This document shows positions 16,825 to 53,295 of a DNA stretch of 64,000 nt, in pieces. Source of the DNA: an uncultured Pseudomonadota bacterium. Its GTDB lineage: Bacteria > Pseudomonadota > Alphaproteobacteria > Acetobacterales > Acetobacteraceae. The position numbers were made by a program, and so were the translations under genes. The stretch lies in contig OY970182.1 in NCBI GenBank assembly GCA_963708095.1, positions 2,355,345 through 2,419,344 of the forward strand. The letters run 5' to 3'. Under the pieces are notes generated by a model. That model made no database searches. It saw nothing but the letters and a program-made list of their open reading frames with translations, and had not been told where the DNA came from. Positions within the stretch are counted from its first letter, which is position 1. Every line of letters begins with the position of its first letter.

Positions 16825-17288
16825 ACTCCGAGATTGACGGCAGAGCTGCCACTCGCGAAGGAGCCTTGGTGGCACTGCGAAAATGCGCCGATGAAGGCGG
16901 CCTTGAGACGGGGTTGCCGTGCGTCGTTGCGACTCCGCGGCACGGCCTCCACGGTCGATAACCCAATGTGCAGACACTGAAATCGCGACCAATCGCGCGG
17001 AGTGGTGCCGCAGGCCTTTATCTTGCCGTCCCTTCTAATCGGAACTTTCGTCTCTCTCCGGTCGTCTTTCTCGAAGCGCAGATCAACAGAAATCGCCGCA
17101 AGCAATACGATGCGCTGCGATCTCGCACGGCGGGCCACGATAGTCGGATGGATCGACGCCGCCATGCGAATTGACGGTGCGATCAGCTGCGGACCAGGTG
17201 CAGCGCATGTGCAGTTCGACAGCCGGATCTCGCGCCAGGCCGCGACATCGACAGAAGCGGTCGTCAGATCATCCGCGGTGTGCCGGCG

Positions 17289-18339: not shown

Positions 18340-18879
18340 TCATCGTGTCCGCCCGCCGGGAAGCCAGAGCGGCGTGACGCGGCCGATGACGGCGCGGATC
18401 GGCGTCGGCCCGAAATACCGCCCGTCGAGCGAGGTCGGCACGCTGGGGATCAGCACGAAAATCTCGCCGTTCGGGAGCCTGCCGCAGCCGCTCCATGCGG
18501 CCAGGCTGCGTCCGCGTCCGTCCACCGGCAGGGCGCGGGCGACGGTGCGGCCATTGATCGAAACCGCGCCGTCGCGCTCGCACACGGTCTGTCCGGCAAC
18601 GGCGGCAACGCGCTTCAGCAGCGGCACGCCGCGCGGCAGATAGCCGCGCCCGGCGAACAGCCTGGCGCTACGCCGGTCGGGCCAGAACAGCACGTAATCG
18701 CCGACGCGGAGGTGCTTCCGGCTCGCGGCTGGCAGCACGCGCCAAAGGCCGACCGGCGTGCTGGCCGTGGCGTTCCAGACCACCAGCGGCCGTGCCTGCA
18801 CGGCTGACGCTGCGAGCAAGAGCAGGCCCGCGAGCATGGCGACGAGCACGGCATGCCAATTCCGCCGATTCCGCTTCAC
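18340..18879 (-). CDS. traF: S26-family conjugative signal peptidase (TraF-like)
   Basis: GTG start overlaps the upstream stop (GTGA at 18876-18879). 179 aa with a TM anchor and a peptidase body (VGDYVLF...LLKRVAAVAGQTVC...GEIFVL...SLDGRYFG). The 411-aa track ORF is an over-extension. Confidence 0.85.
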   Translation of the reverse strand: MKRNRRNWHAVLVAMLAGLLLLAASAVQARPLVVWNATASTPVGLWRVLPAASRKHLRVGDYVLFWPDRRSARLFAGRGYLPRGVPLLKRVAAVAGQTVCERDGAVSINGRTVARALPVDGRGRSLAAWSGCGRLPNGEIFVLIPSVPTSLDGRYFGPTPIRAVIGRVTPLWLPGGRTR

Positions 18880-19334
18880 GACGCCATCACCCGGCGCCGC
18901 AGTAGCCAGGCGCGATGCTGATCGCGGGCATAGGGCCGCGGCTGCTCGCCGCAGAGCAGGCGGTTGTGCACGTGCTGCCAGTAGGCCGGCGCGACATCCG
19001 CCGCCTCGACGCCGGCCTGCTCGACCGCGTCGATCAGCGCGAGCAATCGCTGCACACGCGCCCAGCCTGAGAGCCGCAGCAGGATCTCGCCGCCTGGATG
19101 CACGCCGGGCACCGTCGCGCAGGGCTCCCCCGCCCCGCAGGCGCAAAGGATGTCGATGCGCGACACGATGGTCCCGAAGTCGTTCGCCTGCCAGCGAACG
19201 AAGGCGAAGACCGCGCCGGGGGCGAAGAAGATCAGGCGCCGGCGGCGATCGAGAATGCGCTCGCCGGCATCGCGACCGAAGCGCAGCCAGTGTTCGACCC
19301 GATCCCGATAGAACACCAGCCTGACGCTGGTCAT
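18876..19334 (-). CDS. DUF2840-like protein
   Basis: MTSVRLVFYRDRVEHWLRFG... The position upstream of traF is typical for this ICE family. Confidence 0.65.
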   Translation of the reverse strand: MTSVRLVFYRDRVEHWLRFGRDAGERILDRRRRLIFFAPGAVFAFVRWQANDFGTIVSRIDILCACGAGEPCATVPGVHPGGEILLRLSGWARVQRLLALIDAVEQAGVEAADVAPAYWQHVHNRLLCGEQPRPYARDQHRAWLLRRRVMAS

Positions 19335-19400
19335 AGGCTCCTGCGCGCTCACCGCTCGCCTCCCAGGCCATCCCGGTGTGGTCGCCCCGACACCCGCTCC

Positions 19401-19428
19401 GCGTCCTTCCCGACGGCGGGAAGGACGC
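19401..19428. other. Perfect 12-bp stem / 4-nt loop hairpin
   Basis: GCGTCCTTCCCG-ACGG-CGGGAAGGACGC lies between repA and the DUF2840 gene. No T-tract follows. Confidence 0.4.
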
Positions 19429-19666
19429 ACGAACCGTGAAGCCATCCCTCTCTCGATGCGCCTTCCTTCTGCTGTCCGAGGCACCGAACGGCCGGCGGGA
19501 GACGCCTCGCCCGCCGGCGTGCGGAGTGGCGTGACACCCTGGGGTTCTGAGGGTGCGAAGGCCTAACAAAAACAAGAAAGATTCCAGTACTGAGAATCAG
19601 GTACTAAAGTAGGGCGCTCCGAATCTGTGATAACACATTGAACAGAAACACAAAAAAATCGCCCTC

Positions 19667-19729: not shown

Positions 19730-20578
19730 TCACTCACAGATGCGCTCCCGTAACTGTGGATCAAAGCCCGGCTTATCCCCAGGCACCAGCGCGGCACTGT
19801 GGATCGCGGTCGGTGATCGGCTGAACCGCAACCCCTCTTCCCCCCGGTGCCGGACCGGTTCGATGCGATACGCTAGCAACCGCCCTGACCGCGACAGCCT
19901 ACGCAGAGCCGCGACGAAGTCGGAGTGCCGGGCTGCACTTCCGGAACGATCCCGCAGCTGGTCGAGCGAAATCCACCAGCCTGTGGATATCTGCTGGGCG
20001 TGTTTGCGCGCCAGTAGCCAGAGCCAGCGTTCGATCCCACCGGTCAGCGCGAAATACCGCGGCTCGACCGCCAGCACCCGGCGCTGGACGATGGAAGCAA
20101 CCAACCAGTCGGGGACGGTGATCACGATCCCCGCGGGCGTGGCGCGCCAGGCCTCGACCCAGTGGAACCGGGCGAGCAAGCCGTCGGCGGCACCGACCGT
20201 GGTCGTGATCTCGGTCGTGGCGAGCCGGTTCAGCGCCGCGGCGAGTCGCACATACTGGCTGCGCCCGGTCTCGCGCCTGACGAAGCGCAGAATGCGCCGC
20301 AGCGGCGCGATCAGCGTGGGCGCGGCGCGGAGCTTCTCGTCCTGGGCCTGGATGAGCTGGGCGGTGGCCCAGAACAGGATGTCGGCGTCCCAGATGGTGG
20401 CGATGGCGGTGGCGCCCGGCGCCGGCGCGACCAGCACCGAATGACGCCGCCCCTGATAGCGGATCGGCGCCGTGCGCGGCGTCTTGGCCAGGCTGAACCA
20501 GGGCCAGTTCATCAGATCGACCGGCGCGCGCGGGCGCGCATGTTCCAGGATCGCCGGCAGGGGAGGCTCGACCATCAT
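19730..20578 (-). CDS. repA: Replication initiator protein A (RepA/RPA family)
   Basis: 282 aa from MMVEPPLP. WPWFSLAKTPR...IWDADILFWATAQL is typical of this family. ATGA overlap with the upstream HTH gene. Confidence 0.8.
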   Translation of the reverse strand: MMVEPPLPAILEHARPRAPVDLMNWPWFSLAKTPRTAPIRYQGRRHSVLVAPAPGATAIATIWDADILFWATAQLIQAQDEKLRAAPTLIAPLRRILRFVRRETGRSQYVRLAAALNRLATTEITTTVGAADGLLARFHWVEAWRATPAGIVITVPDWLVASIVQRRVLAVEPRYFALTGGIERWLWLLARKHAQQISTGWWISLDQLRDRSGSAARHSDFVAALRRLSRSGRLLAYRIEPVRHRGEEGLRFSRSPTAIHSAALVPGDKPGFDPQLRERICE

Positions 20579-20847
20579 CGGCGGGCGAACACCGCCGGGC
20601 GCCCCGGCCCGCGCGTGGTGGCGGCACCGAGGCCGGGATCGGAGGTGGAAGTCCGGGCACCGGCTTCGGCCCAATGCTGGAGGTCCTCGAGGCGATAGAC
20701 GACCCGGCCGCCGATCTTGCGGTAGGCGGGGCCGGTGCCGAAGGTGCGGTGCTTCTCCAGCGTCCGACCGGAGAGGCCGAGGAACTTGGCCGCCTCGGGG
20801 GTGCGCAGATAGCGCGGCGGCAGGTTGGGAAGTGGCTCTGGCTGCAT
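20575..20847 (-). CDS. Excisionase/AlpA-type helix-turn-helix DNA-binding protein
   Basis: YLRTPEAAKFLGLSGRTLEKHRTFGTGPAYRKIGGRVVYRLEDLQHW. Confidence 0.75.
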   Translation of the reverse strand: MQPEPLPNLPPRYLRTPEAAKFLGLSGRTLEKHRTFGTGPAYRKIGGRVVYRLEDLQHWAEAGARTSTSDPGLGAATTRGPGRPAVFARR

Positions 20848-21006
20848 GGTGGTGACCCTCGGCGTCGGGCGGCCGGCAATCGGCGCGCGTCCGCACGCAG
20901 GATCGGCGTCCGATGGCGCCGTGCTCAGGGCCAATTCTGGGGGGTGGCCGGAATCGGCCAGGGGGACGCGGAGGATGGCGCCGGCGTCGCGTCGGCTTGC
21001 GGCTGG

Positions 21007-21582
21007 CTACCCGGCTAACGAGCGCCGCTGGGGCATCAGCAGCCGGAACACCGCCCCGTCGCGCCAGCGTCGTGCGGTGGCGAGTAAGATGCGGATGCGA
21101 CTGCGGGCGCCGCTGTCTTCCCAGGGGGCGGGCGGCTCGCCGATGACGGCGCGGTGGATGTCGCGCTCGCTGGCGCCCGCGCCGGCCAGGTCGAGCGCCC
21201 AGGCCATATAGGCGACTTTCAGACCGCGCGAGTGCGGCCGAGCCGGTGGGCTGCGCGGCACCGGCGACACCCGGGGCTGGGCGGCGAAATGCCAGAACGC
21301 GCGAGCCGCCTCGAGCCGCTCGGGGTGCCATTCATCCCAGGGGATGCATGGCGTCAGGATGGCGCCGGGTGCCGGCGGCTCGGGGCCGGGCAGCAGCAGG
21401 TGATGCCGGATGCCCACGTCCGGCGCGACGATCAGGTGGTAGCCGTCCGGCGTCAGCCTGCCGACGTGGCGGGCACCCCATCCGTCCCGCTCGAATCGGA
21501 TCAGGGCGCGGTCGGCCGCCGCACCTGCGGCGACGACAGCCCGGACGATGCGGGCCGTGGCGTCCGCGTTCCAGAACAGCAT
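21007..21582 (-). CDS. DUF2285-like regulator-associated protein
   Basis: 191 aa from MLFWNADATARIV. Recognised only by resemblance to ICE-borne DUF2285 proteins. Confidence 0.55.
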   Translation of the reverse strand: MLFWNADATARIVRAVVAAGAAADRALIRFERDGWGARHVGRLTPDGYHLIVAPDVGIRHHLLLPGPEPPAPGAILTPCIPWDEWHPERLEAARAFWHFAAQPRVSPVPRSPPARPHSRGLKVAYMAWALDLAGAGASERDIHRAVIGEPPAPWEDSGARSRIRILLATARRWRDGAVFRLLMPQRRSLAG

Positions 21583-21601
21583 CGCGTGGTCGCCAGTCGT
21601 G

Positions 21602-21811
21602 TCAGGGCTTTCGAGGAAATCGCAACCTCCATCGTTCGGAGATTGCGTTCGAGGCTTCGGGCAACGGGTCGTGTTCGACCTGTGTGACCGCCTCGTAGTC
21701 TGCACGGTAGGCCGTGCTCCGTCGCTGCAACTCCCAGACCAGCCCGTCCGGCGATAGGCTCTCGATATATCGATACCGGGCGGCCAGCCGCTCTCGCGTG
21801 AAGGGCCGCAT
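21602..21811 (-). CDS. Small conserved protein (DUF6499-like) preceding the DUF2285 gene
   Basis: MRPFTRERLAARYRYIESLSPDGLVWELQRRS. Typical partner of DUF2285 genes. Confidence 0.5.
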   Translation of the reverse strand: MRPFTRERLAARYRYIESLSPDGLVWELQRRSTAYRADYEAVTQVEHDPLPEASNAISERWRLRFPRKP

Positions 21812-21967
21812 ATCGCTCCTCCGACGCGACAGCGGTTCTGACGCGCCCACCGAGATTGATTCGGACCTGCGGGCGAATTCGCAACCCAAGTCATGGAACT
21901 TTCATAATGATCGCAATTGACGCAGGACAGGACGCAGTTGTTCGTGTTTGTTTCTGTTTAACGAGTC

Positions 21968-23311: not shown

Positions 23312-23614
23312 TCAGCGGGACCAGATCAGATTGTAGCTGCCCTCCGCCTCGGCCTCGACCAGGCTCGCGTAGATCGGCTGCGGGAAGCTCGGGTCGTCGA
23401 GCTTGACCGAGAGGTATTCACGCCCCGTTTCCTTCGCCTTGCGGGTCCAGGCGGCGCCGAGTTCGACGTTGCCGGCGGCGAAGACCCGGAAGTCGGGCGC
23501 CTTGTCCGTGCCGCCCTCAGCGGGGACCAGCCGCGCCTTGGCGTTGATGCTGAGGGTGCGGACCGTCCCGGTGTAGCCGTTCGTGTCCTTGCTGAAGCTG
23601 CCGATGATCGCCAT
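23312..23614 (-). CDS. DUF736-family protein
   Basis: [31 protein letters not shown]...[16 protein letters not shown] is the hallmark of DUF736. Confidence 0.8.
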
Positions 23615-23808
23615 GGGAAGTCTCCTTCGCTTGGGTTCTCGGGGCCGCCCCGTGCGGCCTCGATGGCGGTCCTGGGGCCGGGAGGCGATCGACCCGCACC
23701 GCTTGCGGCCGCAGCGCAGCGGAGGACGGCGCGGCGAGACTTTCTTGTCTCGCGAGGAATGCCGCGCCCGGGCGGCAGGGGAAGAAAGTCGCGCCGACGC
23801 CGTTGCGG
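23615..23808 (-). promoter_or_regulatory. Class-B structured leader, copy 1 (upstream of the DUF736 gene)
   Basis: Shares CGCAACGGCG, TCGCGAG and CCGTCCTCCGCTGCGCT with copy 2. Nested stems: GACTTTCTT/AAGAAAGTC (23738-23746 / 23782-23790) enclose GCCGC/GCGGC. Confidence 0.45.
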
Positions 23809-24363
23809 GCAGGCGATCGGGGCGCAGCCCGCACCCCCTGGCCAAATCCGCCCATCGAGAAGCCGGACGGACGGCACCGCATCCCAGCAGGGAGGCGACG
23901 GTGGCGAGCCGCGGCGGGGGTGATCAAGGTGTCACGATGGCACCCTGGCGGGAGACCTCCTGCCAGCACGCCGACCGGATGGCATGGGCGAACGGCGGCG
24001 CAGTGAGCTCAGATGCGGGTCTGCGGTGGCGACGATCTCGGCGGATCCAACACGCCGACCGGGTGATACCTCTGGTCGGCAGGTTGCAGTCGCGCCGGTC
24101 ACTGACACCGACAAACAGCCCGATCTGGCAGGGATCGAGGAGCTGGTCCGCCCGCCAACGCCGGTTACGCGTATCGCCGCGAAGGAGGTCGGGCCGCGAA
24201 GACGATGCTCCCAGCCTTGCCGCCTAGCTCAGGAGGCTCTTCGGGACTTGATTGGCGGGTTGATCATCAAGTTGGAGGAAGTGGACGCATGACAAATTGC
24301 GCGGCGGGTCTTCCAAGGAAGTGGCCGTAGCAACCGGAATTGCATGACGCACCTATGATGGTG

Positions 24364-25704
24364 TCATGATCCGAGCGCAATGCACAAGGTTCGCAGACCG
24401 TGCTCTAGGTCGTCACGGCGCTCTGGTGCACCGAGAGACAGGCGTACGGCATTGGGGACACGCCCGACCGCAAAGGCTGCGCCGAGAGCAACGCGTACAC
24501 CCAACTCTAGAGCGCGTTGTGCAGCCTCATCGCTGCGCAATATCGCTGGAAGATGCAGCCATAAATGCAACGATATTGGATGTGTTTGTCTACGCCATCC
24601 CGCCGGGAGCAGTTGTGCGGCAAGCGCCTGACGGGCCTCAGCCTCGGCGCGTTTCGCCCGCACCAGGTGGACCGCAGTTCCGTCGGCGACCCAGCGTGAG
24701 GCGATAGCGGCGCCCAACGACGGGCTTACCCAGACGGTGGCGCGTACCAGATCGGCCGCACGTCTGGCCTGATCGGGCGTGAAAAGCCACGCGCAACGCA
24801 GCCCGGGCGCAAACGCCTTCGAAGTGCCGCAGACGAGCCAAGTTCGCTCAGGCGCCAATGCCGCCAATGGGGCAGCAGCATCTCCCGCAAGCCAGCCATA
24901 CACGTCGCTCTCGATGATTTGGAAGTCGAGACGGCGAGCCAACGCCACCACCATCTCGCGTCGGCGCACGGACATGACCGCTGATGTGGGATTTTGCACC
25001 GTCGGCATGCAATATAGAGCGGCGATCTTGTGCCTACTCGCCACACGGAGCAGTGCGCGTGGACGCAGCCCCCCTTCATCAAGCGGCACGGCGACCACCC
25101 GCAGATGAAGCGCCGCTGCCGCTGCCTTGATACCCGGCCAGGTGAGCGCTTCGACGGCTATCGTGTCACCCGGTCGGCACACCGCCAACAGCGCCAGGAA
25201 GGTGGCGTGCTGGGAACCGGCGCACACCACGACGCGCCCCGGATCGTTGGGCAGCAAGCCATCGCGCGCAAGCCACGCCGCCCCGGCCGCCCTGTCCTCG
25301 TCGCGCCCCGCGTGCGGCTGGTAGCCGGCTAAGCCTGGCTCCCGCCGCAGGATTGCAACCGCTGCCTTGTAGAAGCGGGCAGCAAGGCCGGGCACCGGCA
25401 TGGCATTGCGCGAAAGGTCCAAGATCCCCTCGGCCTCCGTGCCGAGCCGGAATTCCGCAGCGTCCGCCTGGGCCGGAGCACGAACAAAGCTGCCACGTCC
25501 CACCTCGCCGACGGTCAGACCGCGGTTCGCGAGCAACTGCATTGCTCGTGTTGCGGTGTTGACCGCGACGCTGCGTGTCTCAGCGAGTGCCCGGTGGGTT
25601 GGCAGCCGCTCGCCGGGTCGCAAGCGACCGGCGCGGATGTCTGCTTCCAGATCGGCGGCAATGGCTACGGCGAGATCGACCACGACGCGTTGTCCCTGAG
25701 ACAA
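24364..25704 (-). CDS. MocR/PdxR-type regulator (GntR wHTH fused to a PLP aminotransferase-like domain)
   Basis: 446 aa. The N-terminus RLRPGERLPTHRALAETRSVAVNTATRAMQLLANRGL is followed by a fold-type I aminotransferase-like body. Divergent from the phzF-like gene. Confidence 0.9.
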   Translation of the reverse strand: MSQGQRVVVDLAVAIAADLEADIRAGRLRPGERLPTHRALAETRSVAVNTATRAMQLLANRGLTVGEVGRGSFVRAPAQADAAEFRLGTEAEGILDLSRNAMPVPGLAARFYKAAVAILRREPGLAGYQPHAGRDEDRAAGAAWLARDGLLPNDPGRVVVCAGSQHATFLALLAVCRPGDTIAVEALTWPGIKAAAAALHLRVVAVPLDEGGLRPRALLRVASRHKIAALYCMPTVQNPTSAVMSVRRREMVVALARRLDFQIIESDVYGWLAGDAAAPLAALAPERTWLVCGTSKAFAPGLRCAWLFTPDQARRAADLVRATVWVSPSLGAAIASRWVADGTAVHLVRAKRAEAEARQALAAQLLPAGWRRQTHPISLHLWLHLPAILRSDEAAQRALELGVRVALGAAFAVGRVPNAVRLSLGAPERRDDLEHGLRTLCIALGS

Positions 25705-25769
25705 TTCAACTATTGTCGCACCCTACGGTGGTCCGCACAATGACGGTCCAACTCACGAGGTCAGAGCCG

Positions 25770-26702
25770 ATGCTGCGCCGCTTCCAAACCGTTGATGTGT
25801 TCACCTCCGTCGCATTCAGCGGGAACCCGCTTGCCGTCGTCCTCGACGCGGAGGGGCTGACGACGGCGCAGATGCAGGCCGTGGCACGCGAGTTTAACTA
25901 CGTCGAAACCAGCTTCGTCCTGCCTCCGCGGGACCCCGCGCATGCGGCGCACGTCCGGATATTCACGCCCGATCGCGAGCTGCCCTTCGCCGGCCATCCG
26001 AATGTCGGCACCGCTTTCGTGCTCGCGCGGCTGGGCGAGGCGTTCGGACGCCCGGTGGGTGACGAGATCATGTTCGAGGAGGGCGCGGGCCTCGTCCCGG
26101 TTACGGTGTTGCGGGAGGATGGTGAGGTTGCCGGCGGTGAGTTGACGGCACCCCAACCATTTAGACGCGGTCCGGAAGCGGAACCGAGCCACGTCGCCGC
26201 GGCCGTCTCGCTCGACGTCGAGGATATTGCGACGTCCCGGCATGCCCCGGTAGTTGCGTCAGTGGGACTGCCTTTCCTGGTGGCCGAACTCGGTAGCCGG
26301 GATGCCCTTCGCCGCGTGGTGCCCGATCCGATGGCGCTGGCGCACGTGCTGAGGCTTGCCGGCGTGTCCGGTCTGTATTTGTACACGCGCGACGTGGCAA
26401 AGGGGGACGCTTCCGACACGAGATGTGATCTGAGTGCCCGCATGGTGTGCCGGATTCCGCTAGTGGTCGAGGATCCGGCGACAGGCAGCGCTACGTGCGC
26501 CCTCGTGGCCCTGCTCGCGCATCTCGCACCAGACCAAGACTTGGTTGTCGCGACGACGATAGCACAGGGAGTGGATATGGGCCGTCCCAGTTTACTGGAG
26601 GCTCATGTGCGCAAGTGTGGCGGATCTGTCGAGGCCGTTCGTGTCGGGGGACGCTGCATCGAGGTGATGCACGGGACCCTGCATTTGCCCAATGGGATAT
26701 AG
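25770..26702 (+). CDS. PhzF-family isomerase
   Basis: MLRRFQTVDVFTSVAFSGNPLAVVLDAEGLTTAQMQAVAREFNYVETSFV. Confidence 0.9.
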   Translation: MLRRFQTVDVFTSVAFSGNPLAVVLDAEGLTTAQMQAVAREFNYVETSFVLPPRDPAHAAHVRIFTPDRELPFAGHPNVGTAFVLARLGEAFGRPVGDEIMFEEGAGLVPVTVLREDGEVAGGELTAPQPFRRGPEAEPSHVAAAVSLDVEDIATSRHAPVVASVGLPFLVAELGSRDALRRVVPDPMALAHVLRLAGVSGLYLYTRDVAKGDASDTRCDLSARMVCRIPLVVEDPATGSATCALVALLAHLAPDQDLVVATTIAQGVDMGRPSLLEAHVRKCGGSVEAVRVGGRCIEVMHGTLHLPNGI

Positions 26703-26781
26703 GCAAGTTAGTTCCACGGAGCGGATAGACCCGCCAGACGACCTTGACTCCCACAGGCCCCACAGAGCGCAAGGATGGTTC

Positions 26782-27201
26782 ATGACCGAAAGCGATGCGG
26801 CGCCGATTCGACGGCTCAACCCGCCGGAGTTGGGCGATCCACCTGGCTATTCGCAGATAGTCGATGTGCGTGCAAATCGAATAGTGTTTATCGCGGGCCA
26901 AGCTGCTCTTGATTGTCAAGGAAAGCTGGTCGGGAAGGACGACTTCGCGACGCAGGCCGACCAGGTCTTCCTGAATTTGGCCATGGCCCTCAAGTCGGCT
27001 GGTTGCACTGCGAGCAATGTTATGAAGTTAACCGTTTTTCTCAAAGACATGGATAACCTTGCGGCGTATCGAGAAGCGCGGAATCGATTTTTCGCGATGG
27101 TCGATCCCCCGGCCGCCCCCGCAGTTACTCTGGTCGAGGTATCACGACTATATGCGCCAGAATTCCTGATTGAGATTGAGGCTATCGCAGCAACTTGGTA
27201 G
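26782..27201 (+). CDS. RidA/YjgF-family deaminase
   Basis: GYSQIVDVRANRIVFIAGQAALDCQGKLVG...VMKLTVFLKDM...LIEIEAIA. Confidence 0.9.
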   Translation: MTESDAAPIRRLNPPELGDPPGYSQIVDVRANRIVFIAGQAALDCQGKLVGKDDFATQADQVFLNLAMALKSAGCTASNVMKLTVFLKDMDNLAAYREARNRFFAMVDPPAAPAVTLVEVSRLYAPEFLIEIEAIAATW

Positions 27202-27280
27202 ATTTGGCTGCTGTAGACTAGTATAGAACGACCTCGTATCTACGAACGGACTGAGACCTCAAGTGGCAGGAGCGTGCACG

Positions 27281-27739
27281 ATGTCGACTGGAATCACTGT
27301 TCTTGCGGCGGTGGCAGGAGATGCCATCGAATGGCAGACCCTCTGGGACGGATATTGTTTTGAACTCAACGCCAGCGTACCCTGAGCGGTGACAGCGGGC
27401 ATCTGGCAGCGCATTCTTGCACCAAACGAGCCGGTCTGGTGTCTTCTTGCCTGCCGTCCTGAGGATGAGGTCGTGGGCCTGGCCAATTATAACCTCCATC
27501 CCCACACTCGGAGTCTTCGCTCCGTCTGCCATCTGGGGGACCTCTTCGTAACTACGGAAGCGCGTGGTACTGGCGCAGGGCGAGCGCTGATCGAGGGTCT
27601 GGCTGCGCTCGGCGAGACACACGACAGGCGGCGAGTCTACTGGCACACGCACGAGAGCAACTATCGCGCGCGATCCCTCTACGGCCGGCTTGCACAACGG
27701 ACAGACTATATCCGCTACGATCGTGACATCGATGCATGA
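27281..27739 (+). pseudogene. GNAT N-acetyltransferase interrupted by an in-frame TGA (or truncated, restarting at GTG 27389)
   Basis: The ATG at 27281 has AGGAG 9 nt upstream. 34 GNAT-like codons (MSTGITVLAAVAGDAIEWQTLWDGYCFELNASVP) run into TGA at 27383-27385. The same frame then continues through the acetyl-CoA motif TTEARGTGAGRAL. Confidence 0.55.
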
Positions 27740-28019
27740 CTGGAGGACGGGTCGGCGATTATAGTCATAGTACCGCGATCCGACCGGCTACCTGGTCGTT
27801 CGGTAACCGGCCGCGCGCATCAAAGAACAGCCTTGCTGATCACATACTATAGATTTGCCGGATCAGCCGCGCTACGACGGACGCCGGCTTGGGTCTGTGG
27901 CCGCGACGCCGGGGCAGTTCTGGGGTAGTCGGTGACCCACCGCTGTTGTCGGCCTTGCGGGTGGGGAACGGCGAATCGACCGCGGGCCGGAGCCGCTTTG
28001 CTGCTGGGCAAGGCGGCGC

Positions 28020-28967
28020 TCACACGCCGCCCTCCCCGAACCGCCACACTGGAATGCCGAGACCCCGGGCCTTGTCAGCAAGGTTCTCGCAGATGCCCGA
28101 GCCCGGGAAGACGATCACCCCGATCGGCATCGTCTCGAGCATCCGGTCATTCCGCTTGAACGGTGCCGCCTTGTTGTGCCGTGCCCATTCGGGCTTGAAC
28201 GCGATCTGCGTGACGTTGCGGGAGTTTGCCCAGCAGGCGGCGATGCGTTCGGCCCCTCGCGGGGTGCCGCCGTGCAGCAGCACCATGTCGGCGTGCTTGC
28301 GATACACCCGGTCGAGCACCGCCCAGATGCGCCCGTGGTCGTTGAAATCGACCCCGCCGGCGAAGGCGATCCGCGGCCCGGCGGGCAGCAGCACCTCGGT
28401 CTCGGCGCGGCGCTTGGCAGCGATGAAGTCGCGGCTGTCGATCATCGCAGCGGTCAGGGCGCGGTGGTTGACCATCGATCCCGCACGCGGACGCCAGGCC
28501 GAGCCGGTGTGGCGTTCGAACAGCTCGGCGGCGTGGTCGCGGAGAAGCTCGAAGGCGTTGCGCCGCTCGATCAAGGTCAGCCCCTCGGCGATCAGGCGTT
28601 CCAGCTCGACCGAGCGGATTTCCGAGCCGTCCTGCTCCTGCTGGCTGTGGCGCTGCCGGTCCTCGTTGGCGTCGAGCTCGCGCTGCACGCGGTCCACCGT
28701 GCGGTGGAAGAGATTGACCTGCGACCAGAGCAGATCGGCGAGGTCGGGTTCCAGCCGCGTCTCGGAAAGGGTGGAGACGAGGGCGTCGAAGATGTCGGCC
28801 AGCGCGCCTTCGAGCCGTGCGGCCTCGGGCAGTGGACGCGGATCCGGGTCGTCCTGGTAGGGGCGATGGCCGTAGAGCTGCAGCTCGTCGAGCAGGCGGG
28901 CGGTCGGGGATGCGGCGTGGGCTGGCTCGGCATCGTCGTGGTGCCGGGTGAAGCGGTCGGTCGCCAT
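28020..28967 (-). CDS. DUF2493-domain (SLOG-like) protein
   Basis: 315 aa from MATDRFTRHHDD. The C-terminus is IAFAGGVDFNDHGRIWAVLDRVYRKHADMVLLHGGTPRGAERIAACWA. Confidence 0.7.
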   Translation of the reverse strand: MATDRFTRHHDDAEPAHAASPTARLLDELQLYGHRPYQDDPDPRPLPEAARLEGALADIFDALVSTLSETRLEPDLADLLWSQVNLFHRTVDRVQRELDANEDRQRHSQQEQDGSEIRSVELERLIAEGLTLIERRNAFELLRDHAAELFERHTGSAWRPRAGSMVNHRALTAAMIDSRDFIAAKRRAETEVLLPAGPRIAFAGGVDFNDHGRIWAVLDRVYRKHADMVLLHGGTPRGAERIAACWANSRNVTQIAFKPEWARHNKAAPFKRNDRMLETMPIGVIVFPGSGICENLADKARGLGIPVWRFGEGGV

Positions 28968-29170
28968 GATCGGTGTCCTCGTTCGGCTGGCCGCGCCCAT
29001 CGCGGCCTTCACGGCGATCCCTTGGCCGGGGCCGGGCCGGGGCTGCACCGCCAAGCTCCGCGCGGGCGGCCGGAGCGCAGCGGAGGACGGCGGGCGGCGG
29101 CTATTTTGCCTCGCGATGCAAAGCGCCCCTTCTGGGGCGCGGCGGAAAATAGTCACCGCCCGCCGTTGCG
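28968..29170 (-). promoter_or_regulatory. Class-B structured leader, copy 2 (upstream of the DUF2493 gene)
   Basis: Same invariant blocks as copy 1 (GCGCAGCGGAGGACGGCG at 29075-29092). Stems are in equivalent positions but with different sequence: CTATTTT/AAAATAG (29101-29107 / 29146-29152) enclose GCGCCCC-TTCT-GGGGCGC (29123-29140). Confidence 0.45.
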
Positions 29171-29291
29171 TCCCCGGCCCGGTTCTGGCCCGATCGCCGC
29201 TCTCAGAAGGCCGTGGGCACGGCCCACTCCCGGACACGAGGCACAACGGCGACCGGCGGCGTTCTTCCGACACGAGGCGTTGCCAGGTCTC

Positions 29292-30144
29292 TCACGCTGA
29301 AGCCACAGGCTGCGTGCCGCCCGATGCAAAGCGCGCGGCACCCTCCGGGGTGAGCTGGACCCTCAGCCGTGCCAACAGAGCGTGGGCACCGAAGCGGCGC
29401 AGGTCGGCGTTGAAGTCGTTCGTCACCGGCCAGAGCATGCGCGCCTCGATCCCGGCCGCTTTGGCCCGGTCGCGCAGACGCTTCGCCGCATGACGCCCGG
29501 CCGCGTCGTTGTCGCGCGCGATGTAGAGGCGGCGCAGCGCCGGCGGCAGGATCAGGGCGGTGAGGTGGTTCGCCGAGAGCGCCGCCGCCATCGGCATGTC
29601 GGGCAAGACGCATCGCAGCGACAGCATTGTCTCGATGCCTTCGCCCGCGATCATGACGTCGGACGCCGTGCCGAAGCGGACGGCGTTGCCGAGGAGATTG
29701 CCCAGCGCCCGGCGTGGTGTGGCGATCGGCGCCTTGCCGGCGCCGTCCCGGTCGAGCCAGGTTCGATGCACGCCGGTGATCGCGCCGGCGGCGTCGGTGA
29801 CCGCGGTGATCAGCGCCGGCCAGGACTCACGGGGGGCAGCGTCATGCGCCCGGTAGAAGCAGCCGGGGTGGAAGCGGAGTGCCGGTATGTCGTCCAGGCG
29901 TGCGGTGATGCCACGGTTGCGGAGATAGGTTTCGGCCAGGGTCCCGACGATCGGACGCGAAAGAGCGAACAGCCGCCGGGCCGAGTCCGACGATCCCGCT
30001 CGTGCCGGTGCGCGCGCCGGCTCCCGCTGCGGCAGTCCGAGGAAGGCCCGTGCCTCGCCCAGCGTATCGCCCAGGCGATCGAGACCACGGTTGAGCCGGA
30101 TCAGGTCGAGCAGATCGCCATGCTGACCGGTTGCGGCGTCGGTC
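29292..30144 (-). pseudogene. C-terminal fragment of the resident Toprim-domain gene, split by the RIT element
   Basis: The frame reads TDAATGQHGDLLDLIR...AGEGIETMLSL...LYIARDNDAAG (Toprim Glu and DxD). There is no start codon. It joins seamlessly with the fragment at 35733-35929. Confidence 0.8.
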
Positions 30145-30168
30145 TTATGTGCAGTTGAACATAAGACC
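30141..30168. repeat. 10-8-10 palindrome at the left junction (candidate recombinase core site)
   Basis: GGTCTTATGT-GCAGTTGA-ACATAAGACC. The architecture resembles lox/FRT-type core sites. Present only at the left end. Confidence 0.5.
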
Positions 30169-30770
30169 GATTATGTTGCGCGGCTGGTTATGTTGCGGTC
30201 CCGCGCTGGGCGGCGGTGTTGCGAGCGATCGGCGGCTTCTACGCAACATAACCTCAGCCCATCGGGGTGGGTCGCGTGATGCCCCGCGACGCTTCCGAAC
30301 TGGCGCGTCGGCTCGCCCGCGACGCCGAGGCGGTCTGCCGCCATTACCTCTCCAAGGGACGACGCCAGGGCCGCTACTGGACGGTGGGCGACGTGCGCAA
30401 CACGCCCGGCCGGTCGATGTTCGTGCGGCTGAGCGGGCCGGACTCCGGCCCCGGCGCCGCCGGGCGCTGGACCGATGCCGCCTCGGCCGAGCACGGCGAT
30501 CTGCTCGACGTCATCCGCGAGAGCTGCGGGCTCATGCAGTTCCGCGAGGTCGCCGACGAGGCGCGGCGCTTCCTCTCGCTGCCCCGCGCCGAACCGACGG
30601 CCGCGCCACTACCACCCGCCCCGCAGGGCTCGCCCGAAGCGGCGCGCAGGCTCTGGGCCATGGCCAAGCCGCTCGCCGGCACCTTGGCCGAGACTTACCT
30701 TCACGCCCGCGGGATCAACGATCTGAGGGGCTGTGAGACCCTCCGCTTCCACCCGCGCTGCTGGTATCGC
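30165..30770. repeat. Left terminal inverted repeat (606 bp)
   Basis: Exact reverse complement of 35133-35738 (position x pairs with 65903-x). Supported by identical translations in several frames and by direct comparison at both ends. Confidence 0.95.
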
Positions 30771-31322
30771 CCGGAGGAGCATGCGCCGACCGAGACCTGG
30801 CCGGCGATGATCGCCGCCGTGACTGACCTTTCCGGCGCCATCACCGGCGTGCATCGCACCTGGCTTGCCCGGGACGGCTCGGCCAAGGCGCCGATCGACA
30901 CGCCACGACGAGCCATGGGTGGTCTCCTCGGCCATGCCGTCCGGTTCGGAACGGCCGGCGACGTCCTCGCGGCCGGCGAAGGCATCGAGACGATGCTGTC
31001 GCTGTTGTGCGCGCTGCCCGCCATGCCCATGGCGGCGGCCCTGTCGGCCAGCCATCTCGCCGTTCTCGAGTTCCCGTCGGCGCTCCGTCGGCTCTACATC
31101 GCCCGCGACGGCGACACCGCGGGCGACATAGCCGCCGCGGCGCTCACCGAGCGAGCCGAAGCCGCTGGCGTCGAGGCGCTGGTCCTCTCCCCGCAACGGG
31201 ACGACTTCAACGAGGACCTGCGCGCGTTCGGCCTCAGCGCCGTTCGCGCATCGGTGCGCACCCAGCTCGCGCCGCACGATGCGGTCCGCTTCATGCGCCG
31301 GAGGATGGCCAGGACGGGGTGA
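30279..31322 (+). CDS. Toprim-domain (primase-like) protein, element copy A
   Basis: MPRDASELARRLARDAEAVCRHYLSKGRRQGRYW...AGEGIETMLSL...LYIARDGDTAG. The first 164 codons are identical to copy B. Confidence 0.8.
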   Translation: MPRDASELARRLARDAEAVCRHYLSKGRRQGRYWTVGDVRNTPGRSMFVRLSGPDSGPGAAGRWTDAASAEHGDLLDVIRESCGLMQFREVADEARRFLSLPRAEPTAAPLPPAPQGSPEAARRLWAMAKPLAGTLAETYLHARGINDLRGCETLRFHPRCWYRPEEHAPTETWPAMIAAVTDLSGAITGVHRTWLARDGSAKAPIDTPRRAMGGLLGHAVRFGTAGDVLAAGEGIETMLSLLCALPAMPMAAALSASHLAVLEFPSALRRLYIARDGDTAGDIAAAALTERAEAAGVEALVLSPQRDDFNEDLRAFGLSAVRASVRTQLAPHDAVRFMRRRMARTG

Positions 31323-31347
31323 CCGATGCCGGCACCCCGTCCCCAAC

Positions 31348-32343
31348 TCACAAGGCCTTCAGGAAGGCCATGAGATCCTTGTCCTCCTTCCATGAGCGAG
31401 CGGGCCGTGGCTGTCCCACTTCGCAGAGCGCAACAGCGTTGGCTTTCAGCGTGAGGTCGATCTCGGCATAAATATTGGTCGTGCTGATCGAGACGTGTCC
31501 GAGCCAAGCGCGGATGGTGTTGATGTCCACGCCGGCGAGGACCAAGTGGCAGGCCGTTGTGTGCCGGATCACGTGCGGGGTTATCGTTCGGCCGGCCAGT
31601 TCCGGGACTTGGGCCGCACAGCGCTCGATCAGGCGGTAGACCCCGAAGCGGGTAAACGGCGTCCCGAGCCGGCTGACGAACACGGAGTCTTCGCCCGCAC
31701 GACCGATGATCTCGTCCATCAGGACGCGCTCGGTTTCCGGCCACAGCGGACACTGGCGCGTCCTACCGCCCTTACCGTGCAAGTTGGCCAGATCGTGCCC
31801 GCCGTTCCGCGACCCGATTTGCAGATCGCGCACCCTCAGCTGGGTGGCTTCGGAGACTCTTGCGCCGGTGTTGTAGAGGAAGAGCAGAAGCGCGTACTCG
31901 CTCCGGCCGCGCCGGGTCTTGCGGTCGGGCGTCGCCAGCATCGCCTCCATCTCCGCCCGTGTCAGCCATCCGACTGGCGGCGGCATAGACCTCTTCGACG
32001 CGATGGCCCGGATGTGACCGCACCACTCGACAAGGGTCGGATCCCGGCTGCCGACGAAGCGCGCGAACGCCCGGATGGCGGCAAGCCGCTGATTGCGGGT
32101 CCGCGCGGAGCAACCTCGATCCGTCTCGAGATGAGCGAGGAACTGCAGCACGTGTCCGGACGTGAGGTCCGATACGGCCAGCCGGTCCACGGGCTTGCGC
32201 GCTTTCCGGCTGACGAAGGGCAGCAACAGGCTGAAGGTGTCGCGGTAGCTTTTGCGGGTGTTCCGGGCGAGATTGCGTTCAGTGACGATGTGCTCGGTGA
32301 GGAACCGGCGGAGCCAGGGGCCGAGGATTGAGAGGTCAGGCAT
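31348..32343 (-). CDS. ritC: Tyrosine recombinase, third gene of the trio (RitC-like)
   Basis: MPDLSILGPWLRRFLTEHIVTERNLARNTRKSYRDT...HVIRHTTACHL...LGHVSISTTNIYAE. The start overlaps the ritB stop by 8 nt. Confidence 0.85.
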   Translation of the reverse strand: MPDLSILGPWLRRFLTEHIVTERNLARNTRKSYRDTFSLLLPFVSRKARKPVDRLAVSDLTSGHVLQFLAHLETDRGCSARTRNQRLAAIRAFARFVGSRDPTLVEWCGHIRAIASKRSMPPPVGWLTRAEMEAMLATPDRKTRRGRSEYALLLFLYNTGARVSEATQLRVRDLQIGSRNGGHDLANLHGKGGRTRQCPLWPETERVLMDEIIGRAGEDSVFVSRLGTPFTRFGVYRLIERCAAQVPELAGRTITPHVIRHTTACHLVLAGVDINTIRAWLGHVSISTTNIYAEIDLTLKANAVALCEVGQPRPARSWKEDKDLMAFLKAL

Positions 32344-33286
32344 GCCGACCTCCCGCCGCATAGTGGGCGAACCGCAGCGACGCCTGTTCCAGCAGCTCCG
32401 GCGTCATCGACAGATAGACCTTCGTGCCCTCCAGATCGGCGTGACCGAGATAGGTGGAGAGCACCGGCAGCAGCCGTTGCACATCGGCGCCCTGCCGATA
32501 CCAGCTCGTCAGGCGATGGACAGCGAAGCTGTGACGAAGATCGTGCAGCCGCGGGATTGTCCGGCCGCCTGCCGCGCGGTGGACCCCGGCGACGCGCCGC
32601 AGCGCGTCGAACGCGGCCTGCACGGTGCTGCTCGCGAGCCGCGTTCCATCCTGGTTCGCCAAGAGCAACGCATTCTGGCCGTCCACAAGCCCGGCTTGCC
32701 GGTGCTGGGACACGTGGCTGTCCAGCACCGCGGCAAGCTGTGCCCCGACCGGGACCAGCCGGCTCTTGTAGAACTTCGTGGCCCGGATGGTCAGGACGGC
32801 GTTCGCCAGATCGACGTCGGCCAAGGTGAGGCGAGTCGCCTCCCCGAAGCGTAACCCCGCGCCGTACAGCACGAGAAGCAAGGTGCGGAACGTCGCCGCA
32901 TCCAGCTGAACCGCGCCGCGCCGGCTTGCCTCCAGGGTCGCGGGATCGAAGAGGCGCGCAAGCTCATCGCGCGAGTAGATGTAGGGCGGCGCCCGGACGG
33001 GCGATCTCGGCGCATCGTCCGGCATCGGCCAGTGAGTGGCGTGGCCGCGGCTGATCGCGTGACGCCAGAAGCCGGCAAGCGCGTAGTACTTGTTCTCGCG
33101 GTGACGCGTTGGCGGGCCCTCGCCCGCCAGGTAGGCGAGGAGCTGCCCCGTGGTGATCGCGTCGCAGGCGGCGTCGCCATCGGCGTGGTCGAGGAAGCGG
33201 CGCAGGAGATTCGCCGCGGTCGTGTACTTCGCGCCGTGAGCCCGTCGCCATAGGATATATCGCTCGATTGCCTCACGCAGGATCAT
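32336..33286 (-). CDS. ritB: Tyrosine recombinase, second gene of the trio (RitB-like)
   Basis: 316 aa from MILREAIERY. HDLRHSFAVHRL...LGHADLEGTKVYL. ATGA overlap with the ritA stop. Confidence 0.85.
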   Translation of the reverse strand: MILREAIERYILWRRAHGAKYTTAANLLRRFLDHADGDAACDAITTGQLLAYLAGEGPPTRHRENKYYALAGFWRHAISRGHATHWPMPDDAPRSPVRAPPYIYSRDELARLFDPATLEASRRGAVQLDAATFRTLLLVLYGAGLRFGEATRLTLADVDLANAVLTIRATKFYKSRLVPVGAQLAAVLDSHVSQHRQAGLVDGQNALLLANQDGTRLASSTVQAAFDALRRVAGVHRAAGGRTIPRLHDLRHSFAVHRLTSWYRQGADVQRLLPVLSTYLGHADLEGTKVYLSMTPELLEQASLRFAHYAAGGRHA

Positions 33287-34635
33287 ACAAGGCCCTCCAG
33301 GTCGAGAGCGGCCACCTCGCGAAGCGCGACGAGGTCGACCTTGGCGTAGATCGTGGTGGAGGACGGATCGCGATGGCCGAGGAAGTCCCCGATCACCTTC
33401 ATCGACGTGCCCTGATCCAGCAGATGCTGGGCCGCCGCATGCCGCAGGGCGTGGGCGCCGCGTCGGCCGGTGACGACGCCGATGCCCGCCAGCCGGTCGC
33501 GGACCATCTTGCCCAGGGCTTTTCGGTCGAGCGGCCGGATCGGCGCATGCATCGTGAAGAAGAGGCTGCGTCCGAAGCCGGACGGCCGCGCCTCCCTGAT
33601 GTAGCGCAGGATGGCATGGCCCACGCCCTGCGACAGCGGCCACAGATGGGTTCGGCCCGGTTTCGGGCAGCGGACCCGAAGCATGGCGTTCTCCCAGTCC
33701 AGATCGTCCAGCCGCAGGCCGCCGACCTCTCCGGTCCGAAGCCCGTACCCGATGAACAGCATCAGGATAGCCCGGTCGCGCCTGTCGACCGGGCGATCAC
33801 CTCCAACCGACGCCAGCAGGCGCACGACATCCTCGCGCGGCAGCCCCTTCGGCACGGTCTCGTCGGCCATGAACCGGGGCGCCATGATCCCTGCTGCGAC
33901 GCCCGCTCGGCACCAGCCGCGCGTCTCGGCGAACAAGAAGAAGGCCCTCAGACGCTGCGCATAATCGTGTCTCGTACGGCGGCCCCAGGCGCCTCGCCCG
34001 AGCTCCGTCGCTACGGCATCGTCGATGTCGGTCATTCCTACGGCAATCAGCGGTGTGCCTCTTCCCGCCAGCCATAGGAAGAAGCGGTCGGCAGCCCGAC
34101 AATAGTCGTGCACGGTCGCCGCAGAGAGACCGCGTTCCTCGCGCATCCACCGCTCGAAGGCGCGGACCTCGGCGTCATGCGGATGGCGACGGTCGTCGGG
34201 TTCATCAAGCCAGCCCAGGAAGGCGAGCCATCGAACACCGTGGCTGACGAAGCGGTCGCGCGTCTTGGGCGACGCGGTCCGATCGCAGCGGCGTCCCCTC
34301 GGCTGCGACCACAGCACTGCAGCAGCCTCGATCTGCGACGGACTTACCCGCTCGCCATCTTCAAGGTCCAGAAGGCGCACCAGGCTCAGCTGATCGTTGG
34401 CGCACTTTCGCAGGGTCGATCGCCTCGCGCCGGTCGCCTTGAGATGAACGAGGTATCGTTCCCGCTGCTCCGCGAGCGGCGCTGCGCGATACCTCTTGGC
34501 GGTGTGGGGGAAGAAGATGTCGTCGAACACGTTGGCCTCCACGTTGTTGAAGGCTTGAGCTTCTCGACGGAGCGGGACGGCGGAAGCTATGTTGATCGCA
34601 CGCGAGGCCTTTCGTCCGGCGCGAGCTGGACGCAC
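33283..34635 (-). CDS. ritA: Tyrosine recombinase, first gene of the trio (RitA-like)
   Basis: HALRHAAAQHLL...LGHRDPSSTTIYAK. Start uncertain: the ATG at 34635 overlaps the Toprim copy B 3' end, and a GTG near 34542 is an alternative. Confidence 0.8.
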   Translation of the reverse strand: MRPARAGRKASRAINIASAVPLRREAQAFNNVEANVFDDIFFPHTAKRYRAAPLAEQRERYLVHLKATGARRSTLRKCANDQLSLVRLLDLEDGERVSPSQIEAAAVLWSQPRGRRCDRTASPKTRDRFVSHGVRWLAFLGWLDEPDDRRHPHDAEVRAFERWMREERGLSAATVHDYCRAADRFFLWLAGRGTPLIAVGMTDIDDAVATELGRGAWGRRTRHDYAQRLRAFFLFAETRGWCRAGVAAGIMAPRFMADETVPKGLPREDVVRLLASVGGDRPVDRRDRAILMLFIGYGLRTGEVGGLRLDDLDWENAMLRVRCPKPGRTHLWPLSQGVGHAILRYIREARPSGFGRSLFFTMHAPIRPLDRKALGKMVRDRLAGIGVVTGRRGAHALRHAAAQHLLDQGTSMKVIGDFLGHRDPSSTTIYAKVDLVALREVAALDLEGLV

Positions 34636-35624: not shown

Positions 35625-35738
35625 CACGCGACCCACCCCGATGGGCTGAGGTTATGTTGCGTAGAAGCCGCCGATCGCTCGCAACACCGCCGCCCAGCGC
35701 GGGACCGCAACATAACCAGCCGCGCAACATAATCGGTC
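35133..35738. repeat. Right terminal inverted repeat (606 bp)
   Basis: Mirror image of 30165-30770. Confidence 0.95.
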
Positions 35739-35929
35739 CATTTGCCGGCGGCACCCCGGCCGGAGTCCGGCCCGGTCAGCCGCACGAACAGGCTGCGGCC
35801 CGGCGTGTTCTGGACATCGCCGACCAGCCAGTAGCGGCCTTGGCGGCGGCCGTTGGAGAGGTAGTGGCGGCACACCGCCTCGGCCTTGCGCGCGAGGCGG
35901 TGTGCCAGTTCGGCGGCGGACCCGGACAT
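35733..35929 (-). pseudogene. N-terminal fragment of the resident Toprim-domain gene
   Basis: MSGSAAELAHRLARKAEAVCRHYLSNGRRQGRYWLVGDVQNTPGRSLFVRLTGPDSGRGAAGKWTD, then the frame runs into element sequence. Confidence 0.8.
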
Positions 35930-53291: not shown

Positions 53292-53295
53292 CGGT

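Follow-up and report, generated by a model that had tools for sequence, protein, structure and literature searches.

A conserved rod-like structure preceding DUF736 and DUF2493 genes of alphaproteobacterial conjugative elements is a candidate single-strand DNA initiation element

Two genes of a conjugative element, encoding a DUF736 protein and a YAcAr/DUF2493 protein, are each preceded by a copy of the same structured repeat, which raises the questions of what this repeat does and on which strand of the DNA it folds. Both genes lie in a stretch of 64,000 nucleotides (nt) of contig OY970182.1 (GCA_963708095.1), derived from an uncultured member of the Acetobacteraceae and referred to below as the window. 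The window has a G+C content of 67% and carries a conjugative element whose backbone genes are all found on the minus strand. Its gene organisation is of the ICEMlSymR7A/pMLb type (pMLb annotation), and the element that carries both copies is named here an ICEMlSymR7A/Tn4371-like conjugative element; DUF736 itself corresponds to msi110, a backbone gene of ICEMlSymR7A (PMC8627217). A profile search (nhmmer, 101-sequence profile) located exactly two copies in the window, at about 23640-23865 (copy 1) and 28989-29215 (copy 2), with the gene sense on the minus strand (cf. Table 1). A repeat finder aligned positions 23700-23768 with 29061-29129 at 75% identity (family D5), and the 17-mer CCGTCCTCCGCTGCGCT was present exactly at 23713-23729 and 29074-29090 and nowhere else in the window; the resemblance of the two copies is far beyond chance. 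A preliminary description of this DNA had reported two copies that share, in gene sense, the invariant blocks CGCAACGGCG and TCGCGAG, and on the minus strand these read as it stated. The helices it listed (GACTTTCTT/AAGAAAGTC versus CTATTTT/AAAATAG, GCCGC/GCGGC versus GCGCCCC/GGGGCGC, and ACGGCG/CGCCGT) were likewise found in the sequence, and Pfam confirmed the identity of the two downstream genes. Its length estimate of ~190 nt had to be corrected, as the element is really ~210-230 nt long and continues through the following "100 nt" as well as further upstream, adding the outer helices P1-P3. The Shine-Dalgarno sequence and the ATG do lie about 100 nt past the last block, but these 100 nt are not a spacer and belong to the conserved element. 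Conservation spans the sequence from the 5' block CGGCCTC to the 3' block GATCGCCATCGAGGCCGC; a small hairpin comes next, and then the Shine-Dalgarno sequence and the ATG, so placed that the base of the folded rod described below is found 20-45 nt before the Shine-Dalgarno sequence. Copy 2 is a DUF2493-type variant with a shorter gene-distal arm.

The element is by no means confined to the window. A pattern scan of species-representative genomes yielded 120 loci, in which nhmmer (E<1e-10) retrieved 101 distinct instances that form the homologue set; many of them are second or third copies per locus, picked by nhmmer and not by the search pattern. In the loci sampled, the element was without exception situated directly upstream of a DUF736 or a DUF2493/YAcAr gene. 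The gene behind it belonged to the DUF736 family in 72 instances and to DUF2493 in 20, the remainder being frame errors or truncations. Using blastn, copy 1 matched 699 plasmid records, including those of Agrobacterium, Rhizobium, Sinorhizobium, Bradyrhizobium, and Mesorhizobium, with no annotated feature beneath the matches, while copy 2 matched 105; the genera among the plasmid matches listed were all Alphaproteobacteria. The literature consulted on DUF736/DUF2493, single-stranded DNA promoters, and ICEMlSymR7A regulation did not mention the element.

To derive a common structure, per-sequence minimum-energy folds were mapped back onto the alignment, and mutual information added two small hairpins in the gene-proximal arm. 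The resulting consensus is a long imperfect rod composed of P1 (CGGCCTC/GAGGCCG), P2 (GATC/GATC), P3, P4, P5 (CAACGGC/GCCGT), P6 (CTTTCTT/AAGAAAG), and an apical hairpin, P6 being the helix formerly described as "outer" and the apical hairpin the one described as "inner". For the 10 helices of this rod, 81.2% of the cells in the alignment of the 101 homologues were paired, compared with 70.3% in shuffled alignments, compensatory (doubly changed) cells numbered 622 versus 200, and the covariation score was 0.292 versus 0.129. None of the 500 shuffles attained the observed value for any of the three measures, and a control in which the partners were slid by 1-3 columns lowered the covariation score to 0.05-0.08. 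Furthermore, several pairs showed three Watson-Crick types. Because pairing and covariation exceeded all shuffles and the slid controls, we conclude with high confidence that the structure is real, conserved, and under selection. Side hairpin 2 differs in length among homologues, and the apical hairpin accepts insertions of up to ~40 nt. Insertions of 20-45 nt at the rod apex were seen in the plasmid pAtS4b (locus L002, 5965-6229 and 3459-3723) and also in L014, L046, L048, L062, and L103; they lengthen the apical hairpin while the flanking blocks stay invariant, which indicates that the apex accepts length changes. In two loci, one copy was inverted relative to its neighbours (L043, 6422-6652 on the plus strand versus two on the minus strand; L084, 5237-5450 on the minus strand versus two on the plus strand), and this may mark an inversion or the junction of two elements.

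Fold energies indicated that the complement of the gene sense was the more stable strand in 99 of the 101 instances. Its advantage was -11.8 kcal/mol, compared with -7.7 kcal/mol expected from composition (dinucleotide shuffles), the excess having p=1e-6 on sequences that are related to each other. The wobble statistics pointed to the same strand. A:C oppositions in the sense, which are G:T wobbles on the complement, outnumbered sense G:U pairs by 188:79 and were ahead at 21 pairs, compared with 8 at which G:U led, and these counts were taken at pairs from sense-strand folds and are therefore biased against the complement. The ratio of A:C to G:U was most pronounced in the inner helices, namely 121:20 in P3, 141:16 in P5, and 163:3 in P6. 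On the complement, 43 of 102 apical loops had the form C-GNA-G, with all four bases occurring as N, versus 3 of 104 on the sense strand. The first side hairpin, which consists of 2 bp and a 3-nt loop, varied in a compensatory manner (GC-GCA-GC, AC-GAA-GT, and AT-GAA-AT); read on the complement, this mini-hairpin was NN-GNA-NN in 53 and GNNA in 20 of the 101 instances, compared with none of 101 on the sense strand, and the same loop pattern was seen in copies outside the search-pattern selection (17/22). The sequences GCGNAGC/GCGNNAGC form extraordinarily stable DNA mini-hairpins with a melting temperature of about 76 C, known from the phage G4 primase site, RSF1010 ssiA, and the single-stranded DNA hairpin promoters of phage N4 (PMC13037366), and their stability relies on the C:G closing pair (PMC3201870). 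Since the complement folds better than its composition predicts, A:C greatly exceeds G:U in the inner helices, and C-GNA-G loops occur on this strand, we favour as the folded strand the complement of the gene sense, i.e., the plus strand of the window and the template of the downstream genes, whereas the preliminary description had drawn the helices on the gene sense.

The position of the element within its hosts was also conserved. Related loci maintain one gene order, namely SNF2, Toprim, DUF2493, element, DUF736, RPA, DUF2840, S26 peptidase, and relaxase, with all members co-oriented, and the relaxase gene is downstream of the element on the same strand in 13/13 related loci. Toprim/DUF7146 genes are neighbours of the element both in the window and in 36 related instances. 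The ArdC gene and a ParB-like gene of the window share its orientation, and in pAtS4b (a Ti-type plasmid) the copies are directed at traG-traD-traC, beside ArdC. In the ICEMlSymR7A-type family, the origin of transfer (oriT) is found just upstream of the relaxase gene (PMC11963761), and relaxase genes are typically placed in the lagging region, entering the recipient last (PMC11541004). Since oriT is expected just upstream of the relaxase gene, and the relaxase typically enters last, the plus strand is the predicted transferred strand (T-strand), leaving oriT (~17.1 kb) toward higher coordinates. The plus strand is the template of the DUF736, DUF2493, Toprim, SNF2, ParB, and ArdC genes, and the predicted transferred strand coincides with the one picked by the wobble and loop statistics.

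We propose that each copy serves the leading region as a single-strand DNA initiation element of the Frpo/ssi kind, situated on the predicted transferred strand. Further support comes from the lack of any conserved or sigma-70-like promoter within 150 nt upstream of the rod, and from the fixed spacing of 20-45 nt that separates the rod base from the ribosome-binding site. We consider this reading to have about as much for it as against it, and our confidence in the mechanism is moderate, compared with high confidence in the structure and its conservation. According to this proposal, the transferred strand (predicted to be the plus strand) would enter the recipient, or be displaced in rolling-circle replication, and its ~210-230-nt region would fold on itself into the long imperfect rod. 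The gene-proximal arm carries the two side hairpins, one of them the d(GC-GNA-GC) mini-hairpin beside the invariant blocks, and this junction would be kept free of single-strand-binding protein (SSB). This structure would be read by an RNA-synthesising enzyme, which might be the host RNA polymerase (as at Frpo/ssp of F), the host DnaG, or the Toprim/DUF7146 protein of the element. RNA would then be made toward the rod base and into the adjacent DUF736 or DUF2493/YAcAr gene, so that the gene would be expressed in a burst, and a primer possibly supplied, while the complementary strand is still missing; once the DNA became double-stranded, the signal would vanish.

This proposal was compared with known systems. 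The Frpo/ssp elements of F (Frpo1, Frpo2, and ssp2) consist of a long T-strand hairpin before co-oriented leading-region genes and are active only while single-stranded (PMC11541004, PMC13478746). Like them, the element is a long imperfect hairpin (a few hundred bases), predicted to form on the template strand of co-oriented genes of the putative leading region; it occurs in several copies per host element directly upstream of presumed early genes, and is GC-rich relative to its surroundings. The long imperfect one-strand hairpin characteristic of Frpo has its counterpart here in a covarying rod of 10 helices, in DNA folds with z=-3.6 and -4.8, and in the template-strand bias. What sets the element apart from Frpo/ssp is a junction bearing two side hairpins, the GNA mini-hairpin among them, together with its alphaproteobacterial hosts and its downstream genes, which are DUF736 and DUF2493 instead of ssb, psiB, or ardB; its function is a predicted one. 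Orientation-specific structured single-stranded DNA is also the hallmark of single-strand initiation (ssi) signals such as phage G4 oric and RSF1010 ssiA/ssiB, where it recruits primase or RNA polymerase, and the single-strand origins (sso) of rolling-circle plasmids and sso1 of ICEBs1 act likewise. The element shares with G4 and ssiA the GCGNAGC-type mini-hairpins (PMC13037366), a Toprim protein is encoded beside it, and its strand-specific GNA/GNNA loops with a C:G closing pair at two positions correspond to the orientation-specific structure with SSB-resistant hairpins that marks ssi and sso signals; in contrast, these signals are 40-150 nt long and have no tie to gene starts. The early promoters of phage N4 are also single-stranded DNA hairpins with a 3-nt purine-containing loop, in that case read as promoters (PMC13037366), but they are short and read by a virion-carried RNA polymerase, and no such polymerase is encoded in the window. 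We regard it as possible, with a shade more doubt than for the general proposal, that the element represents an undescribed class of single-stranded DNA promoters or initiation sites, lacking sigma-70 hexamers and built as a rod with a junction of DNA mini-hairpins, which drives zygotic expression of DUF736 and DUF2493 from the entering strand. Such a class would be present in hundreds of alphaproteobacterial plasmids as well as ICEs (integrative and conjugative elements), including rhizobial symbiosis elements and Agrobacterium plasmids.

Several observations weigh against single-strand initiation. A consensus scan around both copies revealed no Frpo-like sigma-70 -35/-10 hexamers, whichever arm or orientation was considered, and blastn against 5,426 E. 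coli genomes with F-type plasmids (20,395 records) returned no similarity; because these two defining features, stem hexamers and sequence similarity, fail, the element should not be filed in the Frpo family. Relaxed -35/-10 scoring of the 101 homologues with their 150-nt upstream flanks also gave no enrichment over shuffles in either orientation. The motif GGAAG-N15/16-CGTT on the plus strand matches extracytoplasmic function (ECF) promoters only loosely. The predicted transfer polarity comes from a rule in the literature and not from a mapped nick; matches to the nick motif YATCCTGY fell mostly into minus-strand coding sequence, with none in the relaxase-proximal intergenic region, and the alignment of relaxase-upstream regions of related loci was too poorly anchored to reveal an oriT motif. 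As to the choice of strand, about two thirds of the raw energy difference between the strands is attributed by the shuffles to base composition, and for this reason the raw difference was discounted. The outer helices P1 and P2 are balanced, with sense G:U as frequent as A:C, and one apical pair favours sense G:U by 18:1. The homologues are related, so that the counts do not represent independent events. The apical loops of the window's own two copies are not GNA, and GCGNAGC is not over-represented in the window (130 found versus 135 expected), so that the mini-hairpin argument is one of positional conservation only. Finally, the tight link to two gene families and the unpaired invariant CCUCC, which resembles an anti-Shine-Dalgarno sequence, would be equally expected of a cis-acting RNA leader.

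Such a leader is the main rival of single-strand initiation and is plausible, although we hold it to be rather unlikely. In this case, the sense RNA, made from an upstream promoter or by read-through, would form a structured 5' leader. Through its rod and invariant unpaired blocks (e.g., CCUCC), this leader would contact a protein, a small RNA, or the Shine-Dalgarno region and thereby control how well the messages for DUF736 and DUF2493 are translated or how stable they are. Like cis-regulatory RNA leaders of the Rfam type found at mobile-element genes, the element has a structure that is conserved, covaries, and immediately precedes members of particular gene families, to whose starts it is strictly linked at a fixed distance. 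The sense RNA folds too, with nearly all pairs Watson-Crick and z about -3.7, sense G:U pairs occur in P1/P2 and at the apical pair mentioned above, a small hairpin is present just ahead of the Shine-Dalgarno sequence, and the unpaired CCUCC is complementary to the latter and could mask it. Against these points stand the wobble and loop statistics, which indicate the opposite strand and DNA: A:C is more frequent than G:U in total, with a strong excess in the inner helices, and the sense-strand loops read TNC, for which there is no known stability. A hairpin of 2 bp with a 3-nt loop is not expected to be stable as RNA. Furthermore, the sequence invariance is largely within helices, the 150 nt upstream contain no conserved or sigma-70-like promoter, and Rfam 15 gave no match at the gathering score in the whole window and only chance microRNA matches at E<=10 on the locus. 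The preliminary description had left the choice between a 5' untranslated region, a small RNA, and a single-stranded DNA promoter-like element; the nested conserved structure was borne out, as was the association with two backbone genes of the conjugative element that share one orientation, and the evidence favours the third of its options. A stable small RNA is unsupported, given that neither a promoter nor a terminator was found on either strand and no Rfam family matched.

Less probable than an RNA leader, and in our opinion improbable, is a site (sso/ssi) that acts solely as a single-strand origin or in priming the complementary strand, with host primase, RNA polymerase, or the Toprim protein of the element as its reader and without a role in the expression of the adjacent gene. 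The strand-specific DNA-type structure, the occurrence of mini-hairpins at the G4 and RSF1010 ssiA priming sites (PMC13037366), and the adjoining Toprim/DUF7146 genes are in agreement with it; however, a priming site needs neither a fixed 20-45 nt to the ribosome-binding site nor an exclusive tie to two gene families, and with both copies within ~12 kb of the predicted oriT, priming would convert only a short stretch toward the 5' end. Slightly more improbable still is a plus-strand cis-antisense RNA rod repressing the genes, or an operator or cruciform in double-stranded DNA to which a regulator encoded by the element binds via the palindromes CTCGCGAG and CGATCG. In favour of these readings are the better folding of the plus strand, the conserved palindromes, and nearby genes for FseA-like DUF2285 regulators. 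Against them, the plus strand showed neither promoter nor terminator, the promoter would need to sit in two unrelated coding regions, a double-strand binding site leaves the covariation of ~40 pairs unexplained, and the known FseA box is located elsewhere, upstream of rdfS (PMC10359603). A scan around both copies detected no intrinsic terminator on either strand.

Other candidate explanations were tried and rejected. An ECF/EcfG-like reading of the GGAAG-N15/16-CGTT motif was too weak, with a spacing of mostly 15-16 nt versus the expected 16-17 nt and CGTT changed to CATT in 21%, and a sigma-54 promoter was rejected on inspection by eye. The FseA box of PrdfS comprises two inverted hexamers 15-16 bp apart that adjoin the -35 element about 60-95 nt upstream of rdfS (PMC10359603); it was rejected because the element precedes DUF736 and DUF2493 genes and not an rdfS-like helix-turn-helix gene. 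The function of the DUF736 protein was also given up as a clue. AlphaFold2 modelled it with confidence (pLDDT 90.6) as an all-beta fold of eight strands. Its nearest homologue is from Acidiphilium sp. (90%), pointing to a host among the Acetobacteraceae, and it had no sequence match in the PDB and no PDB fold match better than E=0.4.

Table 1. Features of the two element copies and of the surrounding conjugative element. Coordinates refer to the window; "sense" denotes the gene sense.
Feature	Coordinates	Strand	Evidence or remark
Copy 1, whole element	23640-23865	folded strand predicted +, gene sense -	nhmmer E=4.6e-42; + strand DNA fold -80 kcal/mol, z=-3.55
Copy 1, P1 3' half, sense CCATCGAGGCCG	23655-23666	+	pairs with 23852-23865; rod base
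Copy 1, P1 5' half, sense CGGCTTCTCGATGG	23852-23865	+	covariation helix 1, DNA fold
Copy 1, P2/P3 3' half	23668-23685	+	pairs with 23835-23849; helix 3 with compensatory changes at all 10 pairs
Copy 1, P2/P3 5' half	23835-23849	+	helices 2 and 3
Copy 1, side hairpin 2, gene-proximal arm	23696-23712	+	top mutual-information pairs; helix 10 96% paired, three Watson-Crick types
Copy 1, mini-hairpin GCGCAGC, d(GC-GNA-GC)	23714-23720	+	helix 9 96% paired; GC to AU compensation in 19 sequences
Copy 1, invariant block, sense CGCCGTCCTCC	23721-23731	+	CGCCGT(C) is P5 3' half, partner GCAACGGCG at 23798-23806; CCTCC unpaired
Copy 1, P5 5' half, sense GCAACGGCG, nearly invariant	23798-23806	+	covariation helix 5
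Copy 1, P6 3' half, sense AAGAAAGTC	23738-23746	+	pairs with 23782-23790; helix 7, UA to AU in 19 and CG to UA in 20 sequences
Copy 1, P6 5' half, sense GACTTTCTT	23782-23790	+	
Copy 1, conserved unpaired block ATTCCTCGCGAG (sense) with palindrome CTCGCGAG	23749-23760	+	
Copy 1, apical hairpin, sense GCCGC-CCGGGC-GCGGC	23761-23776	+	
Copy 1, small hairpin, sense GCCGC-ACGGG-GCGGC	23644-23658	-	between rod base and Shine-Dalgarno sequence
Shine-Dalgarno AAGGAG (23622-23627), ATG (23612-23614), and DUF736 gene	23312-23627	-	
Copy 2, whole element	28989-29215	+	nhmmer E=9.1e-34; + strand DNA fold -88.2 kcal/mol, z=-4.77
Copy 2, P1/P2 3' half, sense GATCGCCGTGAAGGCC	29004-29019	+	pairs with 29192-29212
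Copy 2, P1/P2 5' half, sense GGCCTTCTGAGAGCGGCGATC	29192-29212	+	DNA fold
Copy 2, P3 3' half	29024-29042	+	pairs with 29172-29191; also inverted repeat I3
Copy 2, P3 5' half	29172-29191	+	DNA fold, inverted repeat
Copy 2, side hairpin 2, long version	29045-29073	+	DNA fold
Copy 2, mini-hairpin GCGCAGC	29075-29081	+	
Copy 2, invariant block, sense CGCCGTCCTCC	29082-29092	+	P5 3' half, partner 29161-29169
Copy 2, P5 5' half, sense GCAACGGCG	29161-29169	+	
Copy 2, P6 3' half, sense AAAATAG	29101-29107	+	pairs with 29146-29152; inverted repeat I2
Copy 2, P6 5' half, sense CTATTTT	29146-29152	+	
Copy 2, conserved block TTTGCATCGCGAGG and apical hairpin GCGCCCC-AGAA-GGGGCGC (sense)	29109-29140	+	
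Shine-Dalgarno GAGGA (28976-28980), ATG (28965-28967), and YAcAr/DUF2493 gene	28020-28980	-	
TrbE	6042-8897	-	
TraG coupling protein	10795-12813	-	
Relaxase, DUF3363/VirD2-type	14779-17034	-	co-oriented with both element copies; sets predicted transfer polarity
DUF2840	18876-19562	-	
Replication initiator RPA	19730-21331	-	
DUF2285/RovC regulator	21007-21894	-	
DUF736 gene	23312-23614	-	Pfam PF05284, E=1.6e-35
YAcAr/DUF2493 protein gene	28020-28967	-	Pfam PF10686, E=1.2e-28
ArdC	53843-54883	-	

Besides the genes listed in Table 1, the minus-strand backbone includes Toprim/DUF7146 genes, a gene for a 1477-aa SNF2-type helicase, and one for a ParB_N protein. Related loci have the DUF2493 and DUF736 modules side by side, whereas in the window they are parted by a cargo island (24364-27201) inserted immediately upstream of copy 1; it encodes a GntR-aminotransferase regulator, a PhzF-like protein, and RidA, and its codon-position G+C is atypical. 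The Toprim/DUF7146 gene is present three times, at 29292-30170 (minus), 34587-35651 (minus), and as an inverted copy at 30252-31322 (plus), with a tyrosine integrase gene at 31348-32403 (minus) between the copies, and this arrangement (29292-35651) looks like an insertion or rearrangement within the leading region. A 198-nt direct repeat (35427-35624 and 35732-35929, 79% identity, 305 nt apart) was found where the second Toprim gene meets the gene for the SNF2 helicase, and the longest local inverted repeat of the region lies at 47334-47412 (34-nt arms, 76% complementary, 11-nt loop). The preliminary description had set the present element ("class B") apart from another repeated leader ("class A"), and class A leaders are indeed a separate family. 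They are found at 53266-53353 and 53763-53850 (80% identical over 88 nt), span the starts of a ParB_N-like gene (51171-53345, minus) and of the gene at 53393-53842 (minus), just downstream of ArdC, and contain a short hairpin GACGGG...CCCGTC beside the Shine-Dalgarno sequence.

To our knowledge, single-strand promoters have so far been established only for F-like enterobacterial plasmids, where they were recognised by similarity or by sigma-70 hexamers. If single-strand initiation is the correct reading, the principle of the single-stranded DNA promoter would extend to Alphaproteobacteria and to ICEs, and its recognition logic could differ, with a junction of DNA mini-hairpins replacing the canonical hexamers. 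Should the element instead be an RNA leader, it would constitute a large and well-supported new family of cis-regulatory RNAs. In the case of single-strand initiation, the element would also offer a handle on two very common uncharacterised backbone genes, DUF736 (msi110 of ICEMlSymR7A) and DUF2493, as well as a sequence and structure signature with which leading regions could be oriented in rhizobial symbiosis islands and Agrobacterium plasmids.

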